Both the position numbers and the translations under genes were made by a program. The notes below the pieces were generated by a model that worked only from the letters and a program-made list of their open reading frames with translations, was not told the origin of the DNA and did no database searches. This document shows positions 3,036 to 40,731 of a stretch of DNA of 40,731 bases, piece by piece (within the stretch, counting starts at the first letter, position 1; the number at the start of each line of letters is the position of its first letter). The stretch lies in IMG/VR virus record IMGVR_UViG_3300020045_008448, positions 1-40,731 of that record, one strand, 5' to 3'. Source of the DNA: a virus (Duplodnaviria; Caudoviricetes).

Positions 3036-3135
3036 CAATAACGAACAAAACGATTCACTAATTATCCTGTACCTACCAGGTTTACTCGCATTGGTAGTAA
3101 TATTAATATTCAAAACAATTCAACACATATGGTAA
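3028..3135 (+). CDS. Small membrane peptide, 35 aa (not in ORF track)
   Basis: MNNNNEQNDSLIILYLPGLLALVVILIFKTIQHIW; fills the gap between its neighbours with short overlaps and has one hydrophobic segment. Confidence 0.55.
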   Translation: MNNNNEQNDSLIILYLPGLLALVVILIFKTIQHIW

Positions 3136-3314
3136 TATACACAATCAAAGTAACACTAATAAATGCCCAGTCTAAACTCAAAGTGGTTCATATTGACACA
3201 AATGTCATGTATGAGAGAGAGACCTTGAGAGATGCCTTGAACCGTTTAGGTTTTATGGACTATGAGATAGTAGTTTGGGTTCACGAGGAAATAAATTTAA
3301 TCACAACAAAATAA
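3129..3314 (+). CDS. Hypothetical protein
   Basis: 61-aa ORF coupled to the previous ORF and followed by a hairpin. Confidence 0.6.
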   Translation: MVIYTIKVTLINAQSKLKVVHIDTNVMYERETLRDALNRLGFMDYEIVVWVHEEINLITTK

Positions 3315-3331
3315 GTTTGGTTAGTATGCGA

Positions 3332-3360
3332 GAGAGTGGGTCCCAAGTGGGCCCATTTTC
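3332..3360 (+). terminator. Probable intrinsic terminator hairpin
   Basis: GAGAGTGGGTCC-caagt-GGGCCCATTTTC stem with G-U pairs and a short T run. Confidence 0.5.
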
Positions 3361-8295: not shown

Positions 8296-8538
8296 ATGAA
8301 AACAGTAAAAACAACGGCACAAGCCCGCTACTACAAAGAGCCAACTGTTATAACTGTTGCCGACCATATAGCTGACAAAATGTTGGCTAATGGTTGGGCT
8401 ACAGAGATTGGCGAAGACGCTCCAGTAGTAGACGCTCCAGTAGTAGACGCTCCAGTAGAAGACGCTCCAGTAGAAGACGCTCCCGTGCCAACAAAAGAAA
8501 CACAAAAACAATCACAAAAAAAACAAACAAAAAAGTAA
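8296..8538 (+). CDS. Small capsid-adjacent protein with DAPV(V/E) repeats
   Basis: 80 aa directly after the capsid gene; ADKMLANGWA helix, repeat linker and basic tail. Confidence 0.7.
   Translation: MKTVKTTAQARYYKEPTVITVADHIADKMLANGWATEIGEDAPVVDAPVVDAPVEDAPVEDAPVPTKETQKQSQKKQTKK
8416..8487 (+). repeat. 15-bp tandem repeat, about 4.8 copies (GACGCTCCAGTAGWA)
   Basis: Units start at 8416, 8431, 8446, 8461 and 8476 (partial). Confidence 0.95.
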
Positions 8539-11885: not shown

Positions 11886-12101
11886 ATGAAATTCAAATAT
11901 CCAACAGACCTCAAATACAATGGGGTAGGCTACAACGCCAAGAACATTCGCCAGTTTAAAGATGGCACCAAGAAAACAGAAGCAGACTTTGTAAAACAAG
12001 TTGCTGGTAAATTAACGGAGGTACAAGCAAAAGAACTTTACGCTATTGCCAACACTCCAGAAACGAGCGGAGATGCCAAAGTTGCTCCAACTAAAAAATA
12101 G
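11886..12101 (+). CDS. Hypothetical tail-module protein
   Basis: 71-aa ORF with an A-rich start. Confidence 0.7.
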   Translation: MKFKYPTDLKYNGVGYNAKNIRQFKDGTKKTEADFVKQVAGKLTEVQAKELYAIANTPETSGDAKVAPTKK

Positions 12102-12186
12102 CTCGTTTTAAGGCTAAAAAAGAGCTCTGTAAGTAGATACGCTTACAGAGCTCTTAAAAGGCCGAAAACGGAGCTCTAAACAGCTA
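12100..12186 (+). repeat. Dispersed periodic element E2 (core 12130-12145) containing a 14-bp perfect inverted repeat
   Basis: AAGAGCTCTGTAAG-tagatacg-CTTACAGAGCTCTT; CGAAAACGGAGCTCTAAA at 12163 is identical to 24517. Confidence 0.8.
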
Positions 12187-12188
12187 TT

Positions 12189-12623
12189 ATGACAGTCTAC
12201 GAATTAAGCAACAGGTTAAAACGTTTCGACTTAAATGCCGAGATTGTCAAAGCTATCAAATTGACCAAAGAAGCCATGATTGAAAAAAATCGTGAGCAAC
12301 TAATGAAAGGCCGAAACACGATAAACCTAAAAATACTACCAAGGTATAAAAGCAAGTCATACGCCAAAAAGAAATTTGCAAGAAATGCTAAGCCTGGTCG
12401 AGGTGTGCCAGACTTAAATAATACCGGTGCTTTCCAGGCTGCAATAGATGTGAAAGTTACAGCTAAACAATTTGAGTTTTTTAGTCGTGATGAAAAAGCA
12501 CCAATGCTTGTAGAGAAATACCCACTAATACTTGGTATGACTGCAAAAACCACCGAACAATACAGCAAAAACACGCTCTTGCCAGTATTGGAAAATAGTT
12601 TAAAAACAAAGTTAGCAAAGTGA
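12189..12623 (+). CDS. Putative tail completion/neck protein
   Basis: Basic 144-aa protein with PDLNNTGAFQAAI motif, as in phage virion morphogenesis proteins. Confidence 0.55.
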   Translation: MTVYELSNRLKRFDLNAEIVKAIKLTKEAMIEKNREQLMKGRNTINLKILPRYKSKSYAKKKFARNAKPGRGVPDLNNTGAFQAAIDVKVTAKQFEFFSRDEKAPMLVEKYPLILGMTAKTTEQYSKNTLLPVLENSLKTKLAK

Positions 12624-12838
12624 TATATTTGCAATGTATAGAGTGTGAACGCCGTAGGGCTGAACTGACAAGACAACTTGAATTTCTAAAAATCAAAATA
12701 AGCCACCGTGCAGTCCAAGAAAGAACAACATACGGAATCTACCTTGACAGCGAAGACCAGAAACTCGTCGCTGCCCCACTCAGTGTCTGCCACGCCAGAG
12801 GATTTACCCCCATTGAAATTATATCAGAACATCAATAG
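12620..12838 (+). CDS. Small hypothetical protein with N-terminal CxxC; start uncertain
   Basis: Fills the gap; overlaps the next reading frame. Confidence 0.55.
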   Translation: MIYLQCIECERRRAELTRQLEFLKIKISHRAVQERTTYGIYLDSEDQKLVAAPLSVCHARGFTPIEIISEHQ

Positions 12839-13415
12839 ACTACCTTTTACGGTTTTTCTTGAAATTACTGATACCAAAGATTTATCCTTATTAATTACTC
12901 AAGGAGAAGCCACAGAGGCAGAACTTGTAGAAGCCTGGGATAAGCTTTATGCAGAATATCATGACGCGTGTAATAATGGTGAGGATGACAGTGAAACAAG
13001 AGAAGTAAAATCATTTGCCACAAGTTACAACAAAGTATGCCGTGCAAGAGTATTACTTGACTCGATTGTTGCTATTGGAACACATGAAACTCTTATTGAA
13101 CAACTTTATGCCTTTGGGTACGACTTACCTGAAAACAACGGCAAGAATATGGAACGTATTGTGGCACTATTCACAGCCAACCACAAACGAGACTACATTG
13201 ACTTACAAACAAATACTCTACAAAGAGAAGAGGAGCAACAAGAAGCCACTGTAATTGATGGCAATTACTACATGAACACTATTGCAATAATGATTGCTAG
13301 TTTGAAGTGTAGTATTGACATAAACTCTTTAACACTTGGATTATATGTGGCTTTAATCAAGCAATACAAGCAACATTGCAAATCACTTTTAAAATTACAA
13401 AATCATGGCAGTTGA
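12813..13415 (+). CDS. Putative tail assembly chaperone; start uncertain (TTG 12813 or GTG 12708)
   Basis: Helical protein immediately upstream of the tape measure gene. Confidence 0.55.
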   Translation: MKLYQNINRLPFTVFLEITDTKDLSLLITQGEATEAELVEAWDKLYAEYHDACNNGEDDSETREVKSFATSYNKVCRARVLLDSIVAIGTHETLIEQLYAFGYDLPENNGKNMERIVALFTANHKRDYIDLQTNTLQREEEQQEATVIDGNYYMNTIAIMIASLKCSIDINSLTLGLYVALIKQYKQHCKSLLKLQNHGS

Positions 13416-16400
13416 TGTTAATGACCTCATAACGGACGCCGCGGTCAAACAGATTGATAAACTAAAAGCCGGCCTTGACCAGGTAGTTCAGTCAATAGCG
13501 GATATAAACCAGGCAGGTGCAAAGCTTGATGCACAGCTTAATGCTGGAAATTTAGGCTGGGCTAAGACAATTGGCAAGATGAAGGAAGTTGCAGCCAATG
13601 GACAACAACTTGAAGAGGCTTACAAGAGATTGGTAGCGGCTAATGACGCTTTGCATGCTGCTGAGGCGAGGCATGCTTCAAGACTCGCTCAACTTGCTGA
13701 GCACCAAAGGACACAAGCACTATTGAATGAAAAGGTAACAATAACAAATAACAAGGTTAAAGACTCTACACTAAAAGTTACTGATGCTATCAATGCAAAA
13801 CAAAAAGCCCAACTCAGGGCACAAGTAACAGCCTCAGAAGGTATCAAGGTAAATACCAGGGCAACCCTTGCTGAGAAAGCACATACTGTTGAACTTGAAA
13901 AACAAGCCTCTACCCTTGCAATCCTTATTGCGGATAACAAAGCTTTGATTGCTCAAAGAAATGCAGTGGATATTTCAACAGTAGCTGGTATTGCAAAGGT
14001 CAAAGAGCTCAACAAGGGTATCACTGAAAATACAAAAATTATCAATGCTAATACGACTGCCAACGAAACTACTTTCGGCACTATTGGCAAGGGTGCTACC
14101 AAGGCACTTAGCTATTTAAGAAACTTGGCTTATATATTGCCAGGTATTGGTATAGCCGGTATATTCAATGGTGTGATTGAAGGTTTGTCAGCTATGTTCA
14201 CAGGTCTCATGAAAGCAACAGGTGCCCAGAAATTATTAAGTGATGCTATGGGAGAAGCTGGTAAAGCATCTGCATTTGAAGTTTGGAATTTAGACAGACT
14301 TTACAAGAAAACACAAGACACGACAATATCAATTGAAAAACGTCAAGAAGCTGTAGACAAACTTCAAAAGATGTTTCCAGACTACTTCAAGGATATTAAA
14401 GATGAAGCGATATTGAATGGTGAAGCCAAAGGCTCCTATGATGAATTGCGAACATCTATAGTGGCTGTTGCCAAAGCCAAGGCTGCTGAGGCAGCTATAC
14501 AAAAAGTATTTGCAGACGGTTTGGATGAAGAGATTTTATTAATCAAAGCTTTGTCAAAAGCAAATGCTGATGAAGCTACTAATCGTGGGAAGCCTAGAAC
14601 ATCAAAACAAGGCGGCTTGGCAGAACTTGGTACCTCTGACCTTCAATACACAGCCAAAGAAGCCGATGAGTATAGGAAAAGAGAGAAACACCGTGCACAA
14701 GAAGAGCTATTTGCATTCCGGTCAAAACAAGCTGAGAAGCTTAGGTTACTTGGACAGTTCCTGGATGACCAAGAGAAACTAATATCTGACAAAACACGTG
14801 AGAAAGAAACAAAAGCAACTAGAACTCCAAGAGGTGCCGCTGACTTACAAGATGACTCTCCAACAGCTTACCTAAATGCCAAGAAAGCAGAGTTCCTGGC
14901 TAACTATCAACTCATGAAGGAAGACGCTGAGAAGCAAGCGGAAATAAACAAGCAAATTGCGGAAAGCGACGAAAAGGTTTCAAAAAACAAGCATGACCTA
15001 CTTGGTGAATACTATGACTACAAACAAAGGTTATTGTTACTTGACAATAAAGCTGGTATGCACGAGATTGCAATGAACAATGAAATAACAGATAAATATG
15101 CACAAGAACTATTTGATAGACAAGATGCCTTGGCAGCTTATTATGCAAACAAGCAAAACCTACTTGACCTAGAAGAGACCAAGGAATTAAAAGAACTTGA
15201 ATTCCACAATATTGCTATTCAAAACAAAATGATTCAAATGCAGACTAAGCTTGACCGTGGAAAGCTTAATGCGTACAATACCAAAGTAGTACAGAATGAA
15301 TTGAAAGCTGAACAGTTCTTATATGATGAGAACTTGAAAACAATTGCTACCATCATAGAGAAATACAATAAAGAGCAACTTGGTACCACTGAACAGTTCA
15401 AAGCTGCAAATCTAGCACTTATCAAAAAGTATGACCAAAAAGAAATTGAAGCGGTAATAGAAAGGTGGAAGTGGATAAAGAATTTCAACGAGCAAGCCGC
15501 TAAAGAAGAGCTTGAGCTAATACAAGGAAACCTAGATGCTTATGCCACTATGGCTGATGACACAGACCGGTACCCCCCACCAACAGAAGAGTCAAAGTAT
15601 TTGTTCGAAAAGAAAATGTATTTCTTGGGTACGTATCTGGAAATGGAGCAGACAGCTACGACCATTCTAATGGGTTTGGCTGATGCGCAATATGCTCATG
15701 AGATGGGGTTAATTGATAAGCGTGAGCAAAAGCTCAACGAGTCTTATGATGAAGACAAGAAACGTATAATGTCAAGCTTTACAACAAAGGTAGACCAGGA
15801 CAATGAACTACTAAAGCTCGATGCCAGAAAAGAAGCACTACAAAAACAAATTGACAGAGATAGGAAAGCGGCAGCACGGAAACAAGCTAAAGACCAAAAA
15901 GCTTCTGACGTTGCAAATATTATTGGTAGTACTTATGTTGCTGTTATGGGTGCATTAGGAGCTAAGCCTTGGACATTTGCCAACATTGCAGTGGCAGCAG
16001 GTATTGGAGCAACTGGTGCAGCCAATCTCGCCAGGGTTATTGCAACACCATTACCACAGTATAAAGATGGTACAAGAGACGCTGCGGGTGGTTGGTCGAT
16101 AGTTGGTGACGGTGGTAAAAGAGAGCTTGTAACAGAGCCGGGTAAAAAACCCTGGATAACTGACAGTGTACCAACACTTGTTAATCTACCAAAACATACC
16201 ATAGTTGAACCTGATGCTGAAACAGCTTTACGTGGGGCTAACTTGATAAGTTTGTTTGCAAACAATGTGTCTTCTACAAATGACAAACAAACGCCACAGC
16301 TTATGGCAAAAATTGATGAGTTGATTGAAGAGACAAGAAACAATAAGTCTATAACCAATGTTGATATAATAGATTTTTCAAACCACACTTTACACGTCCG

Positions 16401-24609: not shown

Positions 24610-24780
24610 ATGAAAATCATATTAAACGCCAAGGTTGACCCACAGCTCAAAGAAGCTCTAAGACTTGTTGCTCAAGATGAGTCTGTTGCCAAAACTATAT
24701 CCAGTAGTTCTCTACTAGTTGAAATCCTGAAAAAGGACCAAAGAGTGGCAGCAAAGCTCAAAATGTTATTGACACGTTAA
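24610..24780 (+). CDS. Putative ribbon-helix-helix regulator, 56 aa (not in ORF track)
   Basis: MKIILNAKVDPQLKEALRLVAQDESVAKTISSSSLLVEILKK shows a strand-helix-helix pattern. Confidence 0.65.
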   Translation: MKIILNAKVDPQLKEALRLVAQDESVAKTISSSSLLVEILKKDQRVAAKLKMLLTR

Positions 24781-24828
24781 TGTGAGTAAAACAGTAAAAC
24801 TAATTCGATTTGCTGGCGTACATTCACA
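24775..24828 (+). promoter_or_regulatory. Conserved promoter/operator repeat, copy 1
   Basis: CGTTAAtgtgAGTAAAACAGTAAAACTAATTCGATTtgcTGGCGTACATTCACA. Confidence 0.8.
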
Positions 24829-24841
24829 AAAAATAATAACA

Positions 24842-25054
24842 ATGACAACATATCAAAAAGGTGACAAATTTAAAAACCCAGTCACAGGTACAACCAACAC
24901 TATTATAGCTATTGACCATGCCAAGTGGTATCCAGGCTCAAGAACTTTTGGCCCCTATTACACACTTGAAATTGCAGACACAGGCAAGCACGTAGAATTA
25001 ACTCCAGCAATGTTAAGCCGTTTCACTAAAATTAATAGCAATGACAAGAATTAA
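24842..25054 (+). CDS. Hypothetical early protein
   Basis: ATG 24842 after an A-rich leader is preferred over GTG 24782, which lies inside the promoter repeat. Confidence 0.7.
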   Translation: MTTYQKGDKFKNPVTGTTNTIIAIDHAKWYPGSRTFGPYYTLEIADTGKHVELTPAMLSRFTKINSNDKN

Positions 25055-25409
25055 TGCAGGCATACCACCGAAGCAATTGTGTCGCCAACACTTGCTTGCT
25101 GAGCTACGTGAAATAAAGCGAATACCTAACATGCTGCCAAAAGCAAACCTCAAAGACCTGCCTACAAAGTTTACGCTTGGTACTGGTCACGTGCGTTTCT
25201 TTTATGACAAGGGCAAGTACACACTCACACGCTATTTACAATTATACCATGAGGCAAAATTTCGTGGGTATAATGTCACAGACTTTTCTGAAGCCTGGAA
25301 AATATATGAGCAATACCTAAAACTATTTAACGATTGGCTACCAGGTGCTAAAGATATAGTAATGATTAATGAGCGTATTGTTGAACGACTAAAAACTATG
25401 AAACAATGA
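25041..25409 (+). CDS. denV: Pyrimidine-dimer DNA glycosylase / endonuclease V (T4 DenV-like)
   Basis: MTRIN, QHLLAELREIKRI and FTLGTGHVRFFYDK; Thr2 and catalytic Glu equivalents are present. Confidence 0.92.
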   Translation: MTRINAGIPPKQLCRQHLLAELREIKRIPNMLPKANLKDLPTKFTLGTGHVRFFYDKGKYTLTRYLQLYHEAKFRGYNVTDFSEAWKIYEQYLKLFNDWLPGAKDIVMINERIVERLKTMKQ

Positions 25410-26389: not shown

Positions 26390-26565
26390 GTAAACATAAA
26401 TGGAAAGAGGTAGAATTACCCAACACAGACAAGACAAAACACATTTGTACCAGAGGTACTTGTAAGTGTATTAAGTGGACATCAAAATACGGTGTTGTTT
26501 ATGAACGCGCCCGGGTGACATATTCCAAAGAACCTATTTGCCTTGGTGACTCAGCTTTCAAATAG
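26386..26565 (+). CDS. Small Cys/His-rich protein, 59 aa (not in ORF track)
   Basis: MSKHKW...HICTRGTCKCIK...EPICLG; possible Zn-binding. Confidence 0.55.
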   Translation: MSKHKWKEVELPNTDKTKHICTRGTCKCIKWTSKYGVVYERARVTYSKEPICLGDSAFK

Positions 26566-26574
26566 TTATTGTTT

Positions 26575-26627
26575 CGTTAACGACAGTAAAACAGTAAAAC
26601 TATTCGACTTGTTGGCGTATATTCACA
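26575..26627 (+). promoter_or_regulatory. Conserved promoter/operator repeat, copy 2
   Basis: CGTTAAcgacAGTAAAACAGTAAAACTATTCGACTtgtTGGCGTATATTCACA. Confidence 0.8.
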
Positions 26628-26653
26628 CTATCAAATAATTAAAAAATAACAAC

Positions 26654-27381: not shown

Positions 27382-27879
27382 ATGAACACAGAAACAACAG
27401 TAGGCACACATTGGATGTGCACAAAGACAGTAATTATAGACTCTTCTGGCGAGCAGCGTTTCACACAAGGTAAAATTTACACTTGTGAGTATTATGGATG
27501 CTTGACAAATGATGTAGGCAATAAAAACCATATTATAAACCCAACATTCCTGGATAAGCACTTTATCCTATGTAGCTATTCTCGTTTTGGCGACATACGT
27601 GCCTGGGCAAAAAATAAAGGTATATTGGACAATGGTGACTCTAAGACCCAGACCGTCAAGCTTTTAGAAGAGGCTGGCGAATTGGCAGCAGCGGTGCTAC
27701 GGGGTAATAGAGCAAATGCCATTGACGCAATTGGTGACATGGTAGTAGTGCTCACTTCTCTTGCTCATCACCAAGGTACAACTATTGAAGAGTGTATTGA
27801 AGCGGCTTATGATGTTATCAAAGGGCGTACCGGTAAAATGGTTGATGGGGACTTTCAAAAGGAGGTTCCCAATGTATAG
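27382..27879 (+). CDS. MazG-like nucleotide pyrophosphohydrolase with an extra N-terminal domain
   Basis: KLLEEAGEL...DAIGD acidic motif; the MazG-like domain starts at about residue 68. Confidence 0.88.
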   Translation: MNTETTVGTHWMCTKTVIIDSSGEQRFTQGKIYTCEYYGCLTNDVGNKNHIINPTFLDKHFILCSYSRFGDIRAWAKNKGILDNGDSKTQTVKLLEEAGELAAAVLRGNRANAIDAIGDMVVVLTSLAHHQGTTIEECIEAAYDVIKGRTGKMVDGDFQKEVPNV

Positions 27880-28651
27880 TTTCGAAATACAATATCGTGA
27901 AGCGCTCAATACAATATGGCGACTTGGTGAATTGCGGTCAAACCGCACAGATACACCAGCACGCTCAATGTTTGACATAGGCTTCAGAGTACTTGTGAAC
28001 AAGTACTACCCAATACTTAATGGTAAGTCAATGGATATTAATATTGTGAATACGGAATTTGAGTGGTTTATAAACGGGCACACAAATACCAAACTATTCA
28101 ATGAAAGAGGTATTAAGATATGGGATGCTTGGGCTGATGACAAAGGTAATTTGGGGCCAGTCTATGGGTATCAACTTATCAACTTTAATGGTGACCCAGC
28201 TTGTAATCAACTCCAAGCTGTTATCAAGTCAATTATTGAAACACCTTTTCATAGACGACACGTTATATCTTTGTGGAACCCTCAGCAACTAAAAGAGATG
28301 GCTCTACCACCTTGTTACTTATACTTCCAGTTTTATGTTGAAGGTAATAAGCTTAATATGTTTGTGGTACAACGGAGTGGTGATATGTTTGCCGGAGTAC
28401 CCTTTGATATTTGCTTGTTTACCAATCTACTTGTTTGGGTAGCGGTACGGACCAATTTGATGCCAAACATTATTTCACATAGAATTGTTGATGCACACAT
28501 ATACGAGAACCACAAGGATGGGCTATATGAATATATGAACAGGTCTATGTCCTTAAAAGCTTTACCAATATATTCAGTTGACCTATTTGGAAATATCACT
28601 TTACACAACTATGACCCCTATCCACGTATTAAAATACCAATAGCAAAATAA
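27872..28651 (+). CDS. Thymidylate synthase-family enzyme with Asp in place of the dUMP-specificity Asn
   Basis: IWDAWAD, LGPVYGYQ, RRHVISLWN, MALPPCY, QRSGDMFAGVPFD and DAHIYENH; likely start ATG 27872. Confidence 0.92.
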   Translation: MYSFEIQYREALNTIWRLGELRSNRTDTPARSMFDIGFRVLVNKYYPILNGKSMDINIVNTEFEWFINGHTNTKLFNERGIKIWDAWADDKGNLGPVYGYQLINFNGDPACNQLQAVIKSIIETPFHRRHVISLWNPQQLKEMALPPCYLYFQFYVEGNKLNMFVVQRSGDMFAGVPFDICLFTNLLVWVAVRTNLMPNIISHRIVDAHIYENHKDGLYEYMNRSMSLKALPIYSVDLFGNITLHNYDPYPRIKIPIAK

Positions 28652-29073
28652 TGAACTGGCATAACACATACCTGAACATAGCTGAAGCCATTGCTCAGCA
28701 TTCAAAAGACCAAGATAGAAAAGTTGGTTGTATTGTAGTCAAAGATGGTCGTATCATATCAACCGGCTATAATGGCACACCTCACAACTTTGACAACAAC
28801 TGTAAGGACGAAAACGGGAAAACCAAAGCAGAGGTTATCCATGCTGAGTCTAATGCAATCACTAAATGTGCAAAGAGCACAGAGTCAATAGCTGGCGCTA
28901 CAATGTACTCAACGTTGAGTTGTTGTGTGGAATGTGCTAAACTAATTATTCAGTGTGAAATTAAAGAGTTCTATTACCTAGAAGCTTGGAAGGATAGTGC
29001 CGGACTTGATTTGTTGACAAAAGCTGGTGTCAAATGTTATAGTCTCGTTAATGACAGTAAAACAGTAAAATAA
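28651..29073 (+). CDS. dCMP deaminase family protein
   Basis: KVGCIVV, STGYNG, HAESNA and CVEC motifs. Confidence 0.92.
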   Translation: MNWHNTYLNIAEAIAQHSKDQDRKVGCIVVKDGRIISTGYNGTPHNFDNNCKDENGKTKAEVIHAESNAITKCAKSTESIAGATMYSTLSCCVECAKLIIQCEIKEFYYLEAWKDSAGLDLLTKAGVKCYSLVNDSKTVK

Positions 29074-29098
29074 TTCGATTGCTTGGCGTATATTTACA
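29046..29098 (+). promoter_or_regulatory. Conserved promoter/operator repeat, copy 3
   Basis: CGTTAAtgacAGTAAAACAGTAAAATAATTCGATTgctTGGCGTATATTTACA; overlaps the 3' end of the deaminase gene. Confidence 0.8.
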
Positions 29099-29122
29099 TT
29101 ATCAATAACAAATACAAAAATC

Positions 29123-29752
29123 ATGTACCAACACACATACAAACGCAAAAAGCGTGATTTCACTGACCCTCCTCCAATGGAGCACTTGGCAGAGTTACAG
29201 GAATGGCTCCAGGACTTATTCGAGACAGTCGTTGAGACCCTTGACAAACAACTACTTGCTCTTTATAACAAGACCGCAAATAAATACAATGCCTTATCCG
29301 GCAAAATCATATTTCTTAATTTTCAAAATCCAATACAAATGGCAACAACAAAAGCCGCCGCAGCCAAAAAAGAAACAGCTGCCGCCGCACCAACACCGAA
29401 GACAGCAGCAGCCAAGAAGGCAGCAGCAACACCAGTAGCTCCAGTAGCTGAGGAACCAGCTGAGAAACCCTTGTCTCAAAAAGAGACGGTTATTGCAGAA
29501 GCTGAAGAGGGTTTATCTGTGAATGAAATCGTTGAAAAACATGGTTTCATCAAGACAAATGTTTCATGGTATTTCAGCAAGCACAAGTTGCACAACTTGC
29601 CGGCGCAAATTGAGCGTAAGGCTAATGAAGCGGCTGAGAAGGCTGCTGCAAAAGCTGAAGTGGCTGCAGCAGTGGCCGCAACCAAAACAAAAGCTGCACC
29701 GGTACCAGCTGCATCAACTAAAAAAGCTGCAAGCGCTCAAAAAACCAAGTAA
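29123..29752 (+). CDS. HTH protein with Ala/Lys-rich histone-H1-like tails; probable internal start at 29339
   Basis: AAKK-type repeats flank EGLSVNEIVEKHGFIKTNVSWYFSKHKL. Confidence 0.75.
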   Translation: MYQHTYKRKKRDFTDPPPMEHLAELQEWLQDLFETVVETLDKQLLALYNKTANKYNALSGKIIFLNFQNPIQMATTKAAAAKKETAAAAPTPKTAAAKKAAATPVAPVAEEPAEKPLSQKETVIAEAEEGLSVNEIVEKHGFIKTNVSWYFSKHKLHNLPAQIERKANEAAEKAAAKAEVAAAVAATKTKAAPVPAASTKKAASAQKTK

Positions 29753-29753
29753 G

Positions 29754-30059
29754 ATGAATATTTTACTTGAGGCTGACCAAATAGTCAACCACAGAGCCGA
29801 GGAGAAGGAGAGGGTTTATGGCCCCTTTCCTGCCTCCATGGCGAAAGCAGCATCCATTGCAAGTGAACTATGCAATAAGGAGATTACCCAGGATGACATG
29901 TATAAAATCATGATTGCCCTTAAGCTCAGTCGTCTGGCTTATAGTTCAAAAGAAGACACAATGCTCGACGCTGTGGCATTTATTGCAGCGTTCAATAATT
30001 TAAAAAATAACAATCATGGCTCCAAAAAAGAACCCACCTCCAGTGGAAGAGAACTCTAA
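29754..30059 (+). CDS. DUF6378-like protein
   Basis: ILLEADQIVNHR...YGP...MIALKLSR...KEDTMLDAVAF pattern; ATG 29754. Confidence 0.7.
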   Translation: MNILLEADQIVNHRAEEKERVYGPFPASMAKAASIASELCNKEITQDDMYKIMIALKLSRLAYSSKEDTMLDAVAFIAAFNNLKNNNHGSKKEPTSSGREL

Positions 30060-32968: not shown

Positions 32969-33256
32969 ATGTTACACAGTAAACAATTCCAAGACATTGA
33001 AAGTGCTTTGCGCTTTGCCAATGATTTTAACAACAAACTCATACCTGTTAGTTTTGTTGATGTTACCCCTGGTCCAAGTATACTATTGGTATATGAGCCA
33101 ATTGAAGTACCAAAGCCTGGTACACATGAACAAGACTTGCTACGCGAGGCCGTAAGCCTAATCGATGATTTGGCCTATGACGGGCTTGATGCATCAGCAA
33201 ATGTTATAGGTAGATTATTTGACCTCCAAGCTAAAATAAAAAGATGCTTGAACTAG
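32969..33256 (+). CDS. Hypothetical protein
   Basis: 95 aa, overlapping the polA start. Confidence 0.65.
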   Translation: MLHSKQFQDIESALRFANDFNNKLIPVSFVDVTPGPSILLVYEPIEVPKPGTHEQDLLREAVSLIDDLAYDGLDASANVIGRLFDLQAKIKRCLN

Positions 33257-35178
33257 CTATAGATATTGAAACCTTCTCAAGTGTTGACTTGAAAAAGACT
33301 GGTGTGCACAAGTATGCTGAAAGCCCAGACTTTGAGATACTCTTGTTTGGCTACATGGTAGACGGTGTATACTGCGAAGTTCTTGACCTTGCAAACGGTG
33401 ATGCTGTTCCTAATGAAATCATGAACGCATTGCTTGACCCACGGGTATTAAAGACAGCCTACAATGCTGCCTTTGAAATTGCTTGTATATCTAACCATTT
33501 TTGTGTTGTACTAGATGCTTCTCAATGGTCATGCACACAGGCATTAGCTGCACAAGCTGGTTATCCTTTCGGTCTTGACATGGTAGCTAAAGTCATGGGC
33601 ACTGTTGAACAAAAGGACGCAGCTGGCAAAGCTCTTATCAAATACTTCTGTTTACCTTGTAAACCAACTAAAGCTAACGGTATGCGTACCCGCAATTTGC
33701 CTGAACATGACCCGGCCAAATGGGAACAGTTCAAAGAGTATTGTGCTGGTGACGTTATTACGGAACAAGCTGTACGGAAAAGTGTATTATCCTGGTTTAA
33801 ACCTATTCCATTCGAAGACAAGCTTTGGGCACTCGACCAAAAGATTAACACACGTGGCGTTAAGGTAGATATGAAACTTGTCGTTGAAGCTTTGTGTACA
33901 GACGAGCTTGAGACCAATAGACTTATAAGTCTTGCTCAGGAAATGACTGGTATCGATAACCCAAACTCAGATGCTCAAATCAAGAAATATATACTAGACA
34001 CAATTGGTGTTGATATTAAGTCACTTAACAAAGAGTCAATTGAAGAGGTAGAGAAACAAGTCAAAGGCACAGAAGTAGAGGAGTTGCTTGTTATCCGCAA
34101 GATGCTTAGCCGTACCTCTATCAAGAAGTTTGAAGCTATGCGAGTAAGTGCAGGGCTTGACAATCGTGTCCGTGGGTTATTCCAATACTATGGAGCTAAC
34201 CGCACAGGACGATGGGCTGGACGTAATGTTCAGCTCCAAAACCTTGTACGTAACTCTCTCAAGGACTTAGACTTTGCCAGGACTCTTGTACGTAACGGAA
34301 AACGTGACGTGCTTTACTTAACTTATGATGATGTTGGTAAGGTGCTTAGTAACTTGATACGTTCAGCGTTCATACCAGATGCAGGTAAGGTTTTGGTCGT
34401 ATCTGACTTCAGTGCAATTGAGGCGCGGGTGACTGCCTGGTTGGCTGGTGAGAAATGGCGTATGGATGTATTTGCAGGTGACGGTAAGATATATGAAGCT
34501 TCCGCCTCAAAGATGTTCAATATACCATTAGATAGTATTACTAAGGATATTCGCCAACGTGGCAAGGTAGCTGAGCTTGCTCTTGGCTACGGTGGTGGCG
34601 TAGGCGCACTTGTCCGAATGGGTGGCGAAGCTATGGGCCTATCTGAAGATGAAATGGAGTCTATTAAAGTGGCATGGCGTAAAGCTTCACCTACAATTCC
34701 GCGGTTGTGGCGATTGTGCAACGATGCAGCCATACAAGTTATAACTACTGGCGGTAGAGCTAATGTAAATGGCAAGTGTGTCTTTTATATGAAAAATGGT
34801 AACTTGCACATACAACTACCATCTGGACGACCGCTTATATATCTTGACGCCAAATATGACGGTAAGAATGTAACCTACTGGGGTATGGACCAGATCAAAA
34901 AAGTATGGTGCAAACAAACCACTTATGGGGGTAAGCTTGTGGAGAATATTGTTCAGGCAATTGCCCGTGACCTACTTGCCTATAACCTTGTTAAGGTAGA
35001 TGAGATGGGTTATGATATTACCATGCACGTGCATGACGAGATAGTCATTGAGAGTCTTATTGAATATTCAGCAGCCGACAAAACCATACTGACTACCTTG
35101 TTAAGTCAAGAAGTACCATGGGCAAAAGGTCTTGTACTTGGTGCTGAGACATTTATTGCAAACTATTATACAAAATAA
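33244..35178 (+). CDS. polA: Family A DNA polymerase with 3'-5' exonuclease
   Basis: DIET exonuclease motif, RTGRWAG, DFSAIE, RQRGKVAELALGY and HVHDE. Confidence 0.96.
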   Translation: MLELAIDIETFSSVDLKKTGVHKYAESPDFEILLFGYMVDGVYCEVLDLANGDAVPNEIMNALLDPRVLKTAYNAAFEIACISNHFCVVLDASQWSCTQALAAQAGYPFGLDMVAKVMGTVEQKDAAGKALIKYFCLPCKPTKANGMRTRNLPEHDPAKWEQFKEYCAGDVITEQAVRKSVLSWFKPIPFEDKLWALDQKINTRGVKVDMKLVVEALCTDELETNRLISLAQEMTGIDNPNSDAQIKKYILDTIGVDIKSLNKESIEEVEKQVKGTEVEELLVIRKMLSRTSIKKFEAMRVSAGLDNRVRGLFQYYGANRTGRWAGRNVQLQNLVRNSLKDLDFARTLVRNGKRDVLYLTYDDVGKVLSNLIRSAFIPDAGKVLVVSDFSAIEARVTAWLAGEKWRMDVFAGDGKIYEASASKMFNIPLDSITKDIRQRGKVAELALGYGGGVGALVRMGGEAMGLSEDEMESIKVAWRKASPTIPRLWRLCNDAAIQVITTGGRANVNGKCVFYMKNGNLHIQLPSGRPLIYLDAKYDGKNVTYWGMDQIKKVWCKQTTYGGKLVENIVQAIARDLLAYNLVKVDEMGYDITMHVHDEIVIESLIEYSAADKTILTTLLSQEVPWAKGLVLGAETFIANYYTK

Positions 35179-39548: not shown

Positions 39549-40614
39549 ATATCAAGAGCATACGACTCAGCAAATAATTGAACTGCCTGAGGTAGGGCCA
39601 TTCCTAGACATGGGCCTTGGTAAGACAGTAGCAACACTATTTGCTATTAAGAAACTATTTGAAGAGAAACAAATCAAGAGGGTGTTAGTAGTAGCGCCAA
39701 AGAAAGTAGCTGAGACAGTGTGGACAGACGAAATTGCGAAGTGGGATGGTTTAGGCCACCTAAGAGTAAGCAAGATACTTGGTTTAGAAAAAGATAGACG
39801 AAAAGCTTTGGCTACACCAGCAGACATCTATATAATCAATCGTGAGAATGTAGTTTGGCTAGTAGCCTTGTTAGGCAGTAACTGGAATTTCGATATGATG
39901 GTAATAGATGAGCTGTCAAGTTTTAAGTCTCATAAGTCTCAGAGGTTTAAAGCTTTGAGACTTGTTAGGAAATATATCAAGCGTGTAGTAGGATTAACGG
40001 GTACACCAGCACCTAATGGAATGCTAGACCTATGGGCACAATTGTTTTTAATTGACAGAGGTCAAAGATTAGGTGACAACTTTGTAAAGTATAGGGATAA
40101 CTACTTTGAGCCTGGTAAAAGAGATGGTCATGTGGTATTCAACTACACTTTGAAAAAAGGAGACATGTTATTAGGGGATGACTTTTATGTAAAGGAATTA
40201 CATAACAAGATAGGTGATATTTGTTTTTCAATGAAGACAGAAGATTATGTGGACTTACCAGAGAGATTGGATATTATTAGATATGTGGAATTGCCAAAAG
40301 CAGTATTGCAGAAGTATCGCGATTTTGAGAGAGAACAAGTATTGGAACTAATCGACAAAGAAATTACAGCAATCAACGCCGCAGCACTATCAAATAAGCT
40401 TTTACAATTTGCCAATGGTGCAATGTATGATGAAACTAAAAAATGGCACTTGCTACATGATGAAAAGATTGATGTTGCAAAAGAAATAGTGGAAGACCTA
40501 GACGGCAAACCAGTGTTAATCTTTTATAGCTATATATCTGACAAGGAAAGGTTGAAACAAGCATTTCCAAAAGCCAGAGAATTAAAAACACCACAAGATA
40601 TTAAAGATTGGAAT
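39529..40614 (+). CDS. SNF2-family helicase, N-terminal part (open at the window end, so absent from the ORF track)
   Basis: MKYTPRKYQ, FLDMGLGKT, VIDELS and GLTGTP; joins 124-414 to give about 458 aa. Confidence 0.9.
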
Positions 40615-40731
40615 GTAACCTACTGGGGTATGGACCAGATCAAAAAAGTATGGTGCAAACAAACCACTTATGGGGGTAAGCTTGTGGAGAATATTGTTCA
40701 GGCAATTGCCCGTGACCTACTTGCCTATAAC
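40611..40731 (+). other. Exact 121-bp duplicate of 34866-34986 (inside polA); probable assembly chimera
   Basis: Identical sequence joined through GAATG microhomology. Confidence 0.85.

Follow-up and report, generated by a model that had tools for sequence, protein, structure and literature searches.

A MazG-like, thymidylate synthase-like and deaminase gene cassette of an uncultured phage as a probable pre-replicative cytosine-methylation module of the Xp12 type

Phage Xp12 carries fully methylated DNA and obtains its dTTP by deaminating 5m-dCTP (bioRxiv 10.1101/2024.12.05.627091), and 5mC DNA and the provision of thymidine by deamination occur together in the described systems (bioRxiv 10.1101/2024.12.05.627091; PMC12088426). 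The genes concerned in the Xp12 record (MT664984) encode a PRA-PH pyrophosphohydrolase (46207-46980), a thymidylate synthase (TS) homologue (45326-46195), a deaminase (44850-45326) and a dihydrofolate reductase (DHFR; 44377-44865). The MetaGPA studies describe a similar neighbourhood for modified contigs: a TS with N177D, accompanied within 3 kb by PRA-PH and a deaminase of PF00383, with a polymerase of family A in the vicinity (PMC8670742; bioRxiv 10.1101/2024.12.05.627091). Asp at position 177 (numbering of E. coli ThyA) is reported to shift the preference to dCMP, and positions 177 and 147 together separate best between the synthases of cytosine-modified and unmodified contigs (PMC8670742). 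With respect to the product, Leu143 correlates with a methyl group, L143D/E with a hydroxymethyl group and D169N with a hydroxy group (PMC13326640), and of seven Asp-type synthases put to the test five yielded 5mdC in vivo, in an assay with added T4 gp1 (bioRxiv 10.1101/2024.12.05.627091). The enzyme class and its signature positions are in print, as are the neighbourhood of the gene and the thymidine-by-deamination route; a claim of novelty for the present locus is not supported, and no concept is changed by what follows.

The window, i.e. the whole stretch of viral DNA that was analysed (40,731 bases; the record is rated 90% complete), was covered by a scan of 55 ORFs, which include genes for terminase, portal, protease, major capsid protein, amidase and a DUF2800 nuclease, and the replication genes for an ssDNA-binding protein, a VapE-type primase-helicase and a family A DNA polymerase (33244..35178, + strand; PF00476, phrog_17). 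We establish here the identities of the cassette genes, their coupling, the active-site residues, their conservation and the co-occurrence of the genes across relatives. Three genes lie in a row on the + strand: a MazG/PRA-PH-like nucleoside-triphosphate pyrophosphohydrolase (27382..27879; Pfam/PHROG matches), a ThyA homologue of 259 aa, the predicted 5-methyl-dCMP synthase or dCMP 5-methyltransferase (27872..28651; PF00303, E 9.4e-68), and a Zn-dependent protein of the deoxycytidylate-deaminase family (28651..29073; PF00383, E 4.2e-26). The gene cluster had been recognised before, and the family matches bear it out. The synthase starts with the ATG at 27872, 8 nt before the end of the MazG-like stop codon, and the last base of its TAA stop is the first base of the deaminase ATG. 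The cassette is bracketed by two copies of a 70-nt repeat with 86% identity (26565..26634 and 29036..29105, both +), the right one of which overlaps the last 12 codons and the stop of the deaminase gene; these repeats may be promoter-like. A complete relative (G001) is collinear with the window, with about 64-86% DNA identity across the long matches, and has counterparts of both repeat copies at equivalent places. Among 80 polymerase relatives a MazG-like or deaminase gene was found in none and a distant TS in two (in the fetched stretches, some of which were short upstream), and the cassette is therefore best seen as an add-on in the lineage of the window. The host of the clade is probably a member of the Bacteroidota, as judged from relatives in the synthase clade and not from the window itself.

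Xp12, with PaMx74 named alongside it, resembles the window in having an Asp-type TS gene preceded by a pyrophosphohydrolase gene and followed by a deaminase gene, and in the overlap of genes. The Xp12 synthase also has Asp at 177 (Asp196 in Xp12), a residue other than His at 147 and Asp at 169; the two deaminases share SKDxDRKVG, and a dNMP kinase is annotated in neither record. The differences are considerable: the Xp12 synthase has Cys-Pro and Asn at 143 and the window synthase Cys-Tyr and Leu, at 23% identity, the pyrophosphohydrolases are barely alignable (E 0.054), and the GC content is 68% in Xp12 and 40% in the window phage. DHFR, which adjoins the module in Xp12 and in AXL1, had no match among the 55 scanned ORFs; since it is an accessory gene, this lowers the sameness with the Xp12 locus and not that of the mechanism. 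T4 gp42 likewise has Asp at 177, a non-His residue following the catalytic Cys and a pyrophosphatase partner (the gp56 dCTPase), but it is only 19% identical to the window synthase and has Asp in the place of Leu145, and T4 brings a gp1 kinase and a glucosyltransferase, the like of which is absent from the window scan.

Canonical ThyA of E. coli resembles the window synthase in fold (TM about 0.9), length, and catalytic and folate-binding residues, and it is closer in sequence (34% identity). In the alignment to the MG1655 protein R21 corresponds to R25, E58 to E62, W80 to W84, Y94 to Y98, R126/127 to R128/129, L143 to L145, C146 to C148, H147 to Y149, D169 to D171, N177 to D179, H207 to H209 and Y209 to Y211. 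The two active-site substitutions and the otherwise intact TS residues pointed out earlier are thus all found in place: Asp179 is encoded by GAT (28406..28408, +), Cys148-Tyr149 by TGT TAC at the end of the stretch that begins with the Leu145 codon (28304..28318, +), both read directly from the sequence, and the catalytic Cys and phosphate-binding Arg residues are kept beside D179 (C148, R25, R128, R129, R168). The AlphaFold model has an ordinary ThyA fold (pLDDT 94; TM 0.93 to M. tuberculosis ThyA), and the closest solved structure is Elizabethkingia 6AUJ. Among the best 120 of 494 homologues, the query counted, all 120 have Tyr and Asp at the equivalents of 147 and 177, and the catalytic Cys, the Tyr and both Asp residues (171 and 179) are invariant, so that a sequencing error or a lone mutation at Asp179 can be rejected; Asn, which had been named as the residue that would speak against the proposal if close homologues carried it, occurs in none of them. 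The contigs of the one sequencing run listed for the record span short pieces of the window, with position 28406 lying outside them.

The clade is confined to uncultured material as far as the searches reach. No cultured member was found by best hits among 50,697 phage records, the highest identity in which was 38.5% to the window synthase and 42.7% to P0037, the best hit in the latter case being an uncultured fosmid. One pattern scan over the genomes of 185,579 prokaryote species recovered the Tyr/Asp type in five metagenome-assembled contigs only, four times beside a phage MazG, and the other 22 matches carry Asn. Maximum-likelihood trees were built from the 104 of 172 sequences left by filtering at 80% identity, and then from 31. 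They place the Cys-Tyr/Asp enzymes within the Asn-type ThyAs as a supported group whose sister is a His/Asp group, and the Xp12 and T4 synthases fall apart from them. The trees suggest that the clade arose separately from the Xp12 synthase; grouping it with Xp12 was not rejected by the AU test (p 0.56, 31 rows). We found no published description of the Cys-Tyr/Asp clade, the synthases tested in the MetaGPA work having been compared by description.

Judged by the published rules, the substrate of the synthase is very likely dCMP and the group that it transfers very likely methyl. The canonical marks Asn177 and His147 are replaced by Asp179 and Tyr149, which agrees with the earlier proposal of dCMP as substrate and leaves it a prediction, now with the two published signature positions behind it. 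A methyl product is predicted because position 143 is non-acidic (L145) and position 169 is Asp (D171), the signature of a 5-methyl-dCMP synthase: the Asp/Glu at 143 of T4-type hydroxymethylases and the Asn at 169 of the 5-hydroxy-dCMP synthases of the RB69/DLP3 type are both absent. In our alignment the Xp12 synthase has Asn, not Leu, at 143, and the rule for this position is therefore loose. An engineered dCMP methylase with His199/Asn229Asp has reportedly been described in one paper. That the product would instead be 5-hydroxymethyl-dCMP or 5-hydroxy-dCMP, possibly hypermodified afterwards, is highly improbable, given Leu145 and Asp171 and a scan of the 55 ORFs that matched no glycosyl- or carbamoyltransferase, although the rule for 143 is a correlation and relatives use the same gene slot for hydroxymethylase-type enzymes (see below). 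It is also quite unlikely, if less so, that the protein is a relaxed or compensated TS working mainly on dUMP, in a conventional pathway from dCMP over dUMP to dTMP with the MazG-like protein as dUTPase. Its greater nearness to ThyA than to Xp12 or T4 gp42, the retention of all folate- and phosphate-binding residues that were checked and the presence of MazG relatives in many ordinary phages would fit such an enzyme, and the authors of the AXL1 study interpreted the homologous Pamexvirus genes in this way; the AXL1 DNA nevertheless resists C-sensitive enzymes (PMC9206674), Asn177Asp shifts the preference away from dUMP and marks modified contigs (PMC8670742), and Asn is seen in none of the best 120 of 494 homologues and in none of the 93 slot occupants described below.

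The MazG-like ORF matches PRA-PH (E 2.5e-6, above the Pfam cut-off), MazG (E 3.3e-4, just below it) and the MazG-like PHROG (E 2.4e-29), with a domain that makes up the C-terminal part of about 95 aa and an N-terminal part that is variable. The family accompanies the TS at 80 of the 81 loci, at a distance of no more than 100 nt in 78 cases, and the single exception ends at the synthase; at the metagenome loci it is found in 64/65. As Cys-Tyr is part of the search patterns by which these loci were retrieved, the Tyr, unlike the Asp, is there partly by construction. The protein is likely a dCTPase. Relatives with about 50% identity are carried by Staphylococcus and Streptococcus phages, and the substrate is therefore not fixed by sequence.

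The deaminase is far less constant. A test of whether Asp-type homologues co-occur with deaminases had been proposed. The gene is present in just 2 of 50 relative contigs (1/21 among those at least 90% complete) and at 4 of the 81 TS loci, the window counted, and at none of the 65 metagenome loci that extend 1 kb or more downstream, from which we conclude that the synthase is independent of it. Within the subclade of the window it seems to be the regular partner: it adjoins the synthase in G001, and four further TS/deaminase pairs, whose contigs are equal in length, probably belong together.

A second phage family, sampled via its primase-helicase, was informative about the gene slot beside MazG (95 of 140 loci retained, after dropping those below 11 kb, those with less than 4 kb downstream of the primase and duplicates). 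An Asp-type enzyme occupies this slot at 93 of the 95 loci and an Asn-type enzyme at none; the occupants are 21 members of the present clade, 13 enzymes with Leu/His/Asp and 59 T4-like hydroxymethylase types with D-x-x-C-T, and a deaminase stands at one locus. On the sequences of its occupants, the slot is a cytosine-modification slot. In AP013540, an uncultured marine phage, an NTP pyrophosphohydrolase, a thymidylate-kinase-like gene, a Cys-Tyr/Asp synthase and a deaminase follow each other in a row. The constancy of the MazG-like gene together with the rarity of the deaminase, the Asp-type slot occupants and the gene row of AP013540 all favour DNA as the destination of the product.

We consider it probable that the three genes form a pre-replicative cytosine-methylation module of the Xp12 type, by which 5mC enters the DNA and part of it is deaminated to thymidine. 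The MazG-like protein would convert dCTP to dCMP, the Asp179/Tyr149/Leu145 synthase is predicted to turn dCMP into 5-methyl-dCMP, some kinase would raise this to 5-methyl-dCTP and the family A polymerase would incorporate it into the phage DNA, to an extent that may be partial or complete; the deaminase would divert part of the methylated nucleotide, at one phosphorylation level or another, to a thymidine nucleotide. The presumed purpose is protection against restriction, combined with a thymidine supply independent of the host ThyA. This reading rests on the synthase signature, the gene order of Xp12, the slot occupants and the published linkage of deaminases to TS genes, and is weakened by the missing dNMP kinase match, an equivocal motif test and the low number of deaminases active in vivo (both below).

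The sequence-only reading had posed a uracil-free thymidylate route and 5mC DNA as alternatives and preferred the first. This choice is poorly supported since both coexist in Xp12; of the proposed route, the deaminase-based supply of thymidine stands, being published for Xp12, and its exclusiveness of 5mC DNA is not supported. A route from dCTP over dCMP and 5-methyl-dCMP to dTMP in a phage with unmodified DNA, in which the relatives that lack a deaminase would use the dCMP deaminase of the host, we regard as unlikely. It would suit the coupling of synthase and deaminase seen in the window and in G001, and probable throughout the nearest subclade, the lack of a kinase match, the ability of ordinary dCMP deaminases (DCTDs) to take 5m-dCMP as well (PMC12088426) and the avoidance of C-containing palindromes by several small carriers. 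The synthase is the single ThyA-family gene in each of 50 carrier contigs, and ThyX was found in none of five checked; the sole ThyA-family gene is compatible with either reading. The rarity of the deaminase does not fit this route, nor does the exchange of the synthase in its slot for hydroxymethylase-type enzymes, whose product is unable to yield dTMP; a module of the same order gives 5mC DNA in Xp12, and in the prokaryote scan the Tyr/Asp type is limited to the five contigs named above, four of them with the phage MazG. The step from 5-methyl-dCMP to dTMP that it needs finds a poor precedent in mSCD-B5, which deaminates 5m-dCTP (99% in 30 min) and not 5m-dCMP, and the characterised Xp12 and mSCD-B5 enzymes both have a triphosphate substrate (bioRxiv 10.1101/2024.12.05.627091).

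Within the favoured methylation module, the deaminase likely acts on methylated deoxycytidine nucleotides and is a candidate 5mC-selective enzyme. Its zinc motifs are intact (HAE 64-66, CxxC with C92/C95, GYNG). In the published collection, 104/149 deaminases of modified contigs have a TS within 3 kb, against 17/277 of those in unmodified contigs, and about half of the 17 synthases linked to a deaminase in unmodified contigs are not predicted dT makers; a screen of homologues, drawn from IMG/VR contigs filtered for an Asp-synthase and a deaminase, is also described there (bioRxiv 10.1101/2024.12.05.627091). Trp113 (codon 28987-28989) is found in 14 of 120 homologues, those closest to the window, and Tyr in the other 106; the same 14 share Cys for Pro at 91 and Asp20/Asp22. 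Trp113 aligns to T4 Tyr153, a position for which an aromatic residue contacting the 5-methyl group is described, Trp128 in Xp12 and Trp121 in PBCV-1 (PMC12088426), and our MAFFT alignment pairs it with Trp132 of Xp12, not Trp128. It fits adaptation to a methylated substrate but is suggestive only, since the T4 Tyr plays the same role and the Xp12 alignment disagrees, and since only 7/90 TS-linked deaminases were positive in vivo and phylogeny is no guide to the polyphyletic 5mC selectivity (bioRxiv 10.1101/2024.12.05.627091). The phage might have 5mC DNA and yet an ordinary dCMP/dCTP deaminase that feeds dUMP to the thymidylate synthase of the host, which we hold to be improbable. The closest solved relative, the cyanophage deaminase 4P9C (E 5.8e-29), points in that direction, as Xp12 (35% identity over 98 aa) and PBCV-1 are far more distant, and so do the 7/90 above and the finding that 34/194 soluble deaminases were 5mC-selective on ssDNA (bioRxiv 10.1101/2024.12.05.627091). 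Such an enzyme would rival the synthase for dCMP, and Trp113, Cys91 and Asp20/Asp22 in the nearest 14 homologues suggest adaptation to the cassette.

If the methylation reading is correct, an abundant uncultured lineage that likely infects Bacteroidota would be added to those phages whose DNA contains 5-methylcytosine, a near-canonical ThyA altered at two active-site positions would fill the gene slot of a T4-like hydroxymethylase, and the label 'thymidylate synthase' on such virome genes would be wrong. Deaminases selective for 5mC are the sort used in methylome sequencing, for which the window enzyme would be a candidate. Should the thymidine supply turn out to be the only function, it would be a natural route that bypasses dUMP, uncoupled from genome modification.

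Neither a dNMP kinase nor a glycosyltransferase or carbamoyltransferase was matched among the 55 scanned ORFs, as had been noticed before for the first two, and the gp1-type kinase PF21448 is absent from 23 of 23 genomes. The argument for a pure thymidylate route that had been built on this does not discriminate, as sugars are not attached to a methyl group and the Xp12 record is also without an annotated dNMP kinase. A small, all-helical DUF6378 protein is encoded at 29754..30059 (+; PF19905, E 1.8e-10). DUF6378 is found at 29 TS loci, mostly directly upstream of the TS, and other TS loci carry an unrelated small helical family, one or the other being present at 77/80; the two profiles do not match each other (4%). 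It also occurs in 18 of the 80 polymerase relatives, 16 of them without a TS match in the fetched stretch. The idea of a kinase function through T7 gp1.7/DUF3310 found no support in profile comparison for either family (probability <1%). DUF6378 had no match in the PDB by profile or Foldseek, a structure search of viral models returned mainly other DUF6378 proteins and the Atlas DUF6378 only, so none of these comparisons links it to a known kinase.

Avoidance of restriction sites was equivocal as proof of modified DNA. We compared 40 of the 80 polymerase-relative controls with 32 of 76 carriers, after dropping loci below 14 kb, near-duplicates and two TS-bearing controls, for motifs including 12 that we took to be of the 5mC type. 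Avoidance of 5mC-type motifs did not differ (7/40 TS-less relatives, 5/32 carriers; Fisher p 1.0), and five 4-mers were avoided by 0/40 against 4/32 (p 0.035), contrary to the 5mC-DNA reading; a cruder version without dereplication favoured that reading for 6-mers and was given less weight. The small low-GC carriers L083, L124, L147 and L149 avoid GCGC, CGCG, CCGG or GGCC, and for this reason we leave the thymidylate route with unmodified DNA its small share of probability; methyl-directed nucleases or a recent acquisition of the cassette could explain the same avoidance. In the second family the one complete member without the cassette (G051) has a C-palindrome ratio of 0.57 versus 0.81-1.05 in 93 carriers and avoids CCGG, CGCG and GGWCC, and G052, which is 88% complete and in which no TS was found, avoids no motif. 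The window has two GATC sites, one of them in the duplicated end, against 71 expected, and also avoids GAWTC, GATATC and GAAGAA and none of the 12 5mC-type motifs; GGWCC is mildly low, at 0.69 in the window and 0.53 in G001.

Either of two small helical proteins accompanied the Asp-type synthase in 77 of the 80 loci: a DUF6378 protein (window 29754-30059) or a member of an unnamed family (3054-3344 of locus L103) with the motifs R-S-x-x-G-x-x-K-Y and Q-E-E-x-x-D. Both are candidates for the missing dNMP kinase, expected for the conversion of 5-methyl-dCMP to 5-methyl-dCTP, or for a second pyrophosphatase. In the small low-GC phage carriers (L083, L087, L089, L111, L124, L147 and L149) the gene set was DUF6378-synthase-MazG, without a deaminase in the fetched stretches, and many C-containing palindromes were still avoided. 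A gene related to the T4 endonuclease V-like pyrimidine-dimer glycosylase of the window (25041-25409; PF03013) was found again in 16 synthase loci.

The MazG-like domain at L138:10778-11611, and in most related loci, is usually preceded by 100-200 additional N-terminal residues, for which no Pfam match was found in these loci. The window and its complete collinear relative, G001, differ from the related loci in that the N-termini are short and different, and in that the MazG-like gene lies upstream rather than downstream of the synthase.

The primase-helicase relatives of L134 and L291 (L245-L384) constitute a large family of aquatic phages (~60 kb), nearly all of which contain an Asp-type synthase adjoining MazG, with three exchangeable types (Cys-Tyr, Cys-His and T4-like D-x-x-C-T). 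No conserved transferase family was prominent in the 8 kb downstream, families being taken without a Pfam scan. At L291 (genome G051, 11934-14008) the cassette is absent and its slot is occupied by ORFs that include one resembling a dATP/dGTP diphosphohydrolase gene (PF18909); C-containing palindromes are strongly avoided in this genome. In the ThyA homologues of Paenibacillus, Aneurinibacillus and Bacillus (L495-L516), Cys-Val replaces Cys-His and Asn is kept.

The nucleotide cassette of the window is flanked on both sides by a repeated intergenic element (24758-24802, 26565-26634 and 29036-29105), probably a phage promoter, that is kept in G001 and whose right copy (29036-29105) encodes the deaminase C-terminus. 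Directly after the deaminase lies a 209-aa ORF rich in Ala/Lys (29123-29752).

Repeats within the window mark both end regions (40611-40731 and 1-144): the final 121 nt (40611-40731) are an exact copy of polymerase DNA (34866-34986), and 40518-40615 recurs inverted at 21-118. The SNF2-type helicase is present in two pieces (39529-end and 76-414). These features probably arose during assembly, as artefacts at the two ends of a genome that is circularly permuted. A tandem repeat with a 15-nt unit (8415-8489) lies within a small ORF after the capsid gene.
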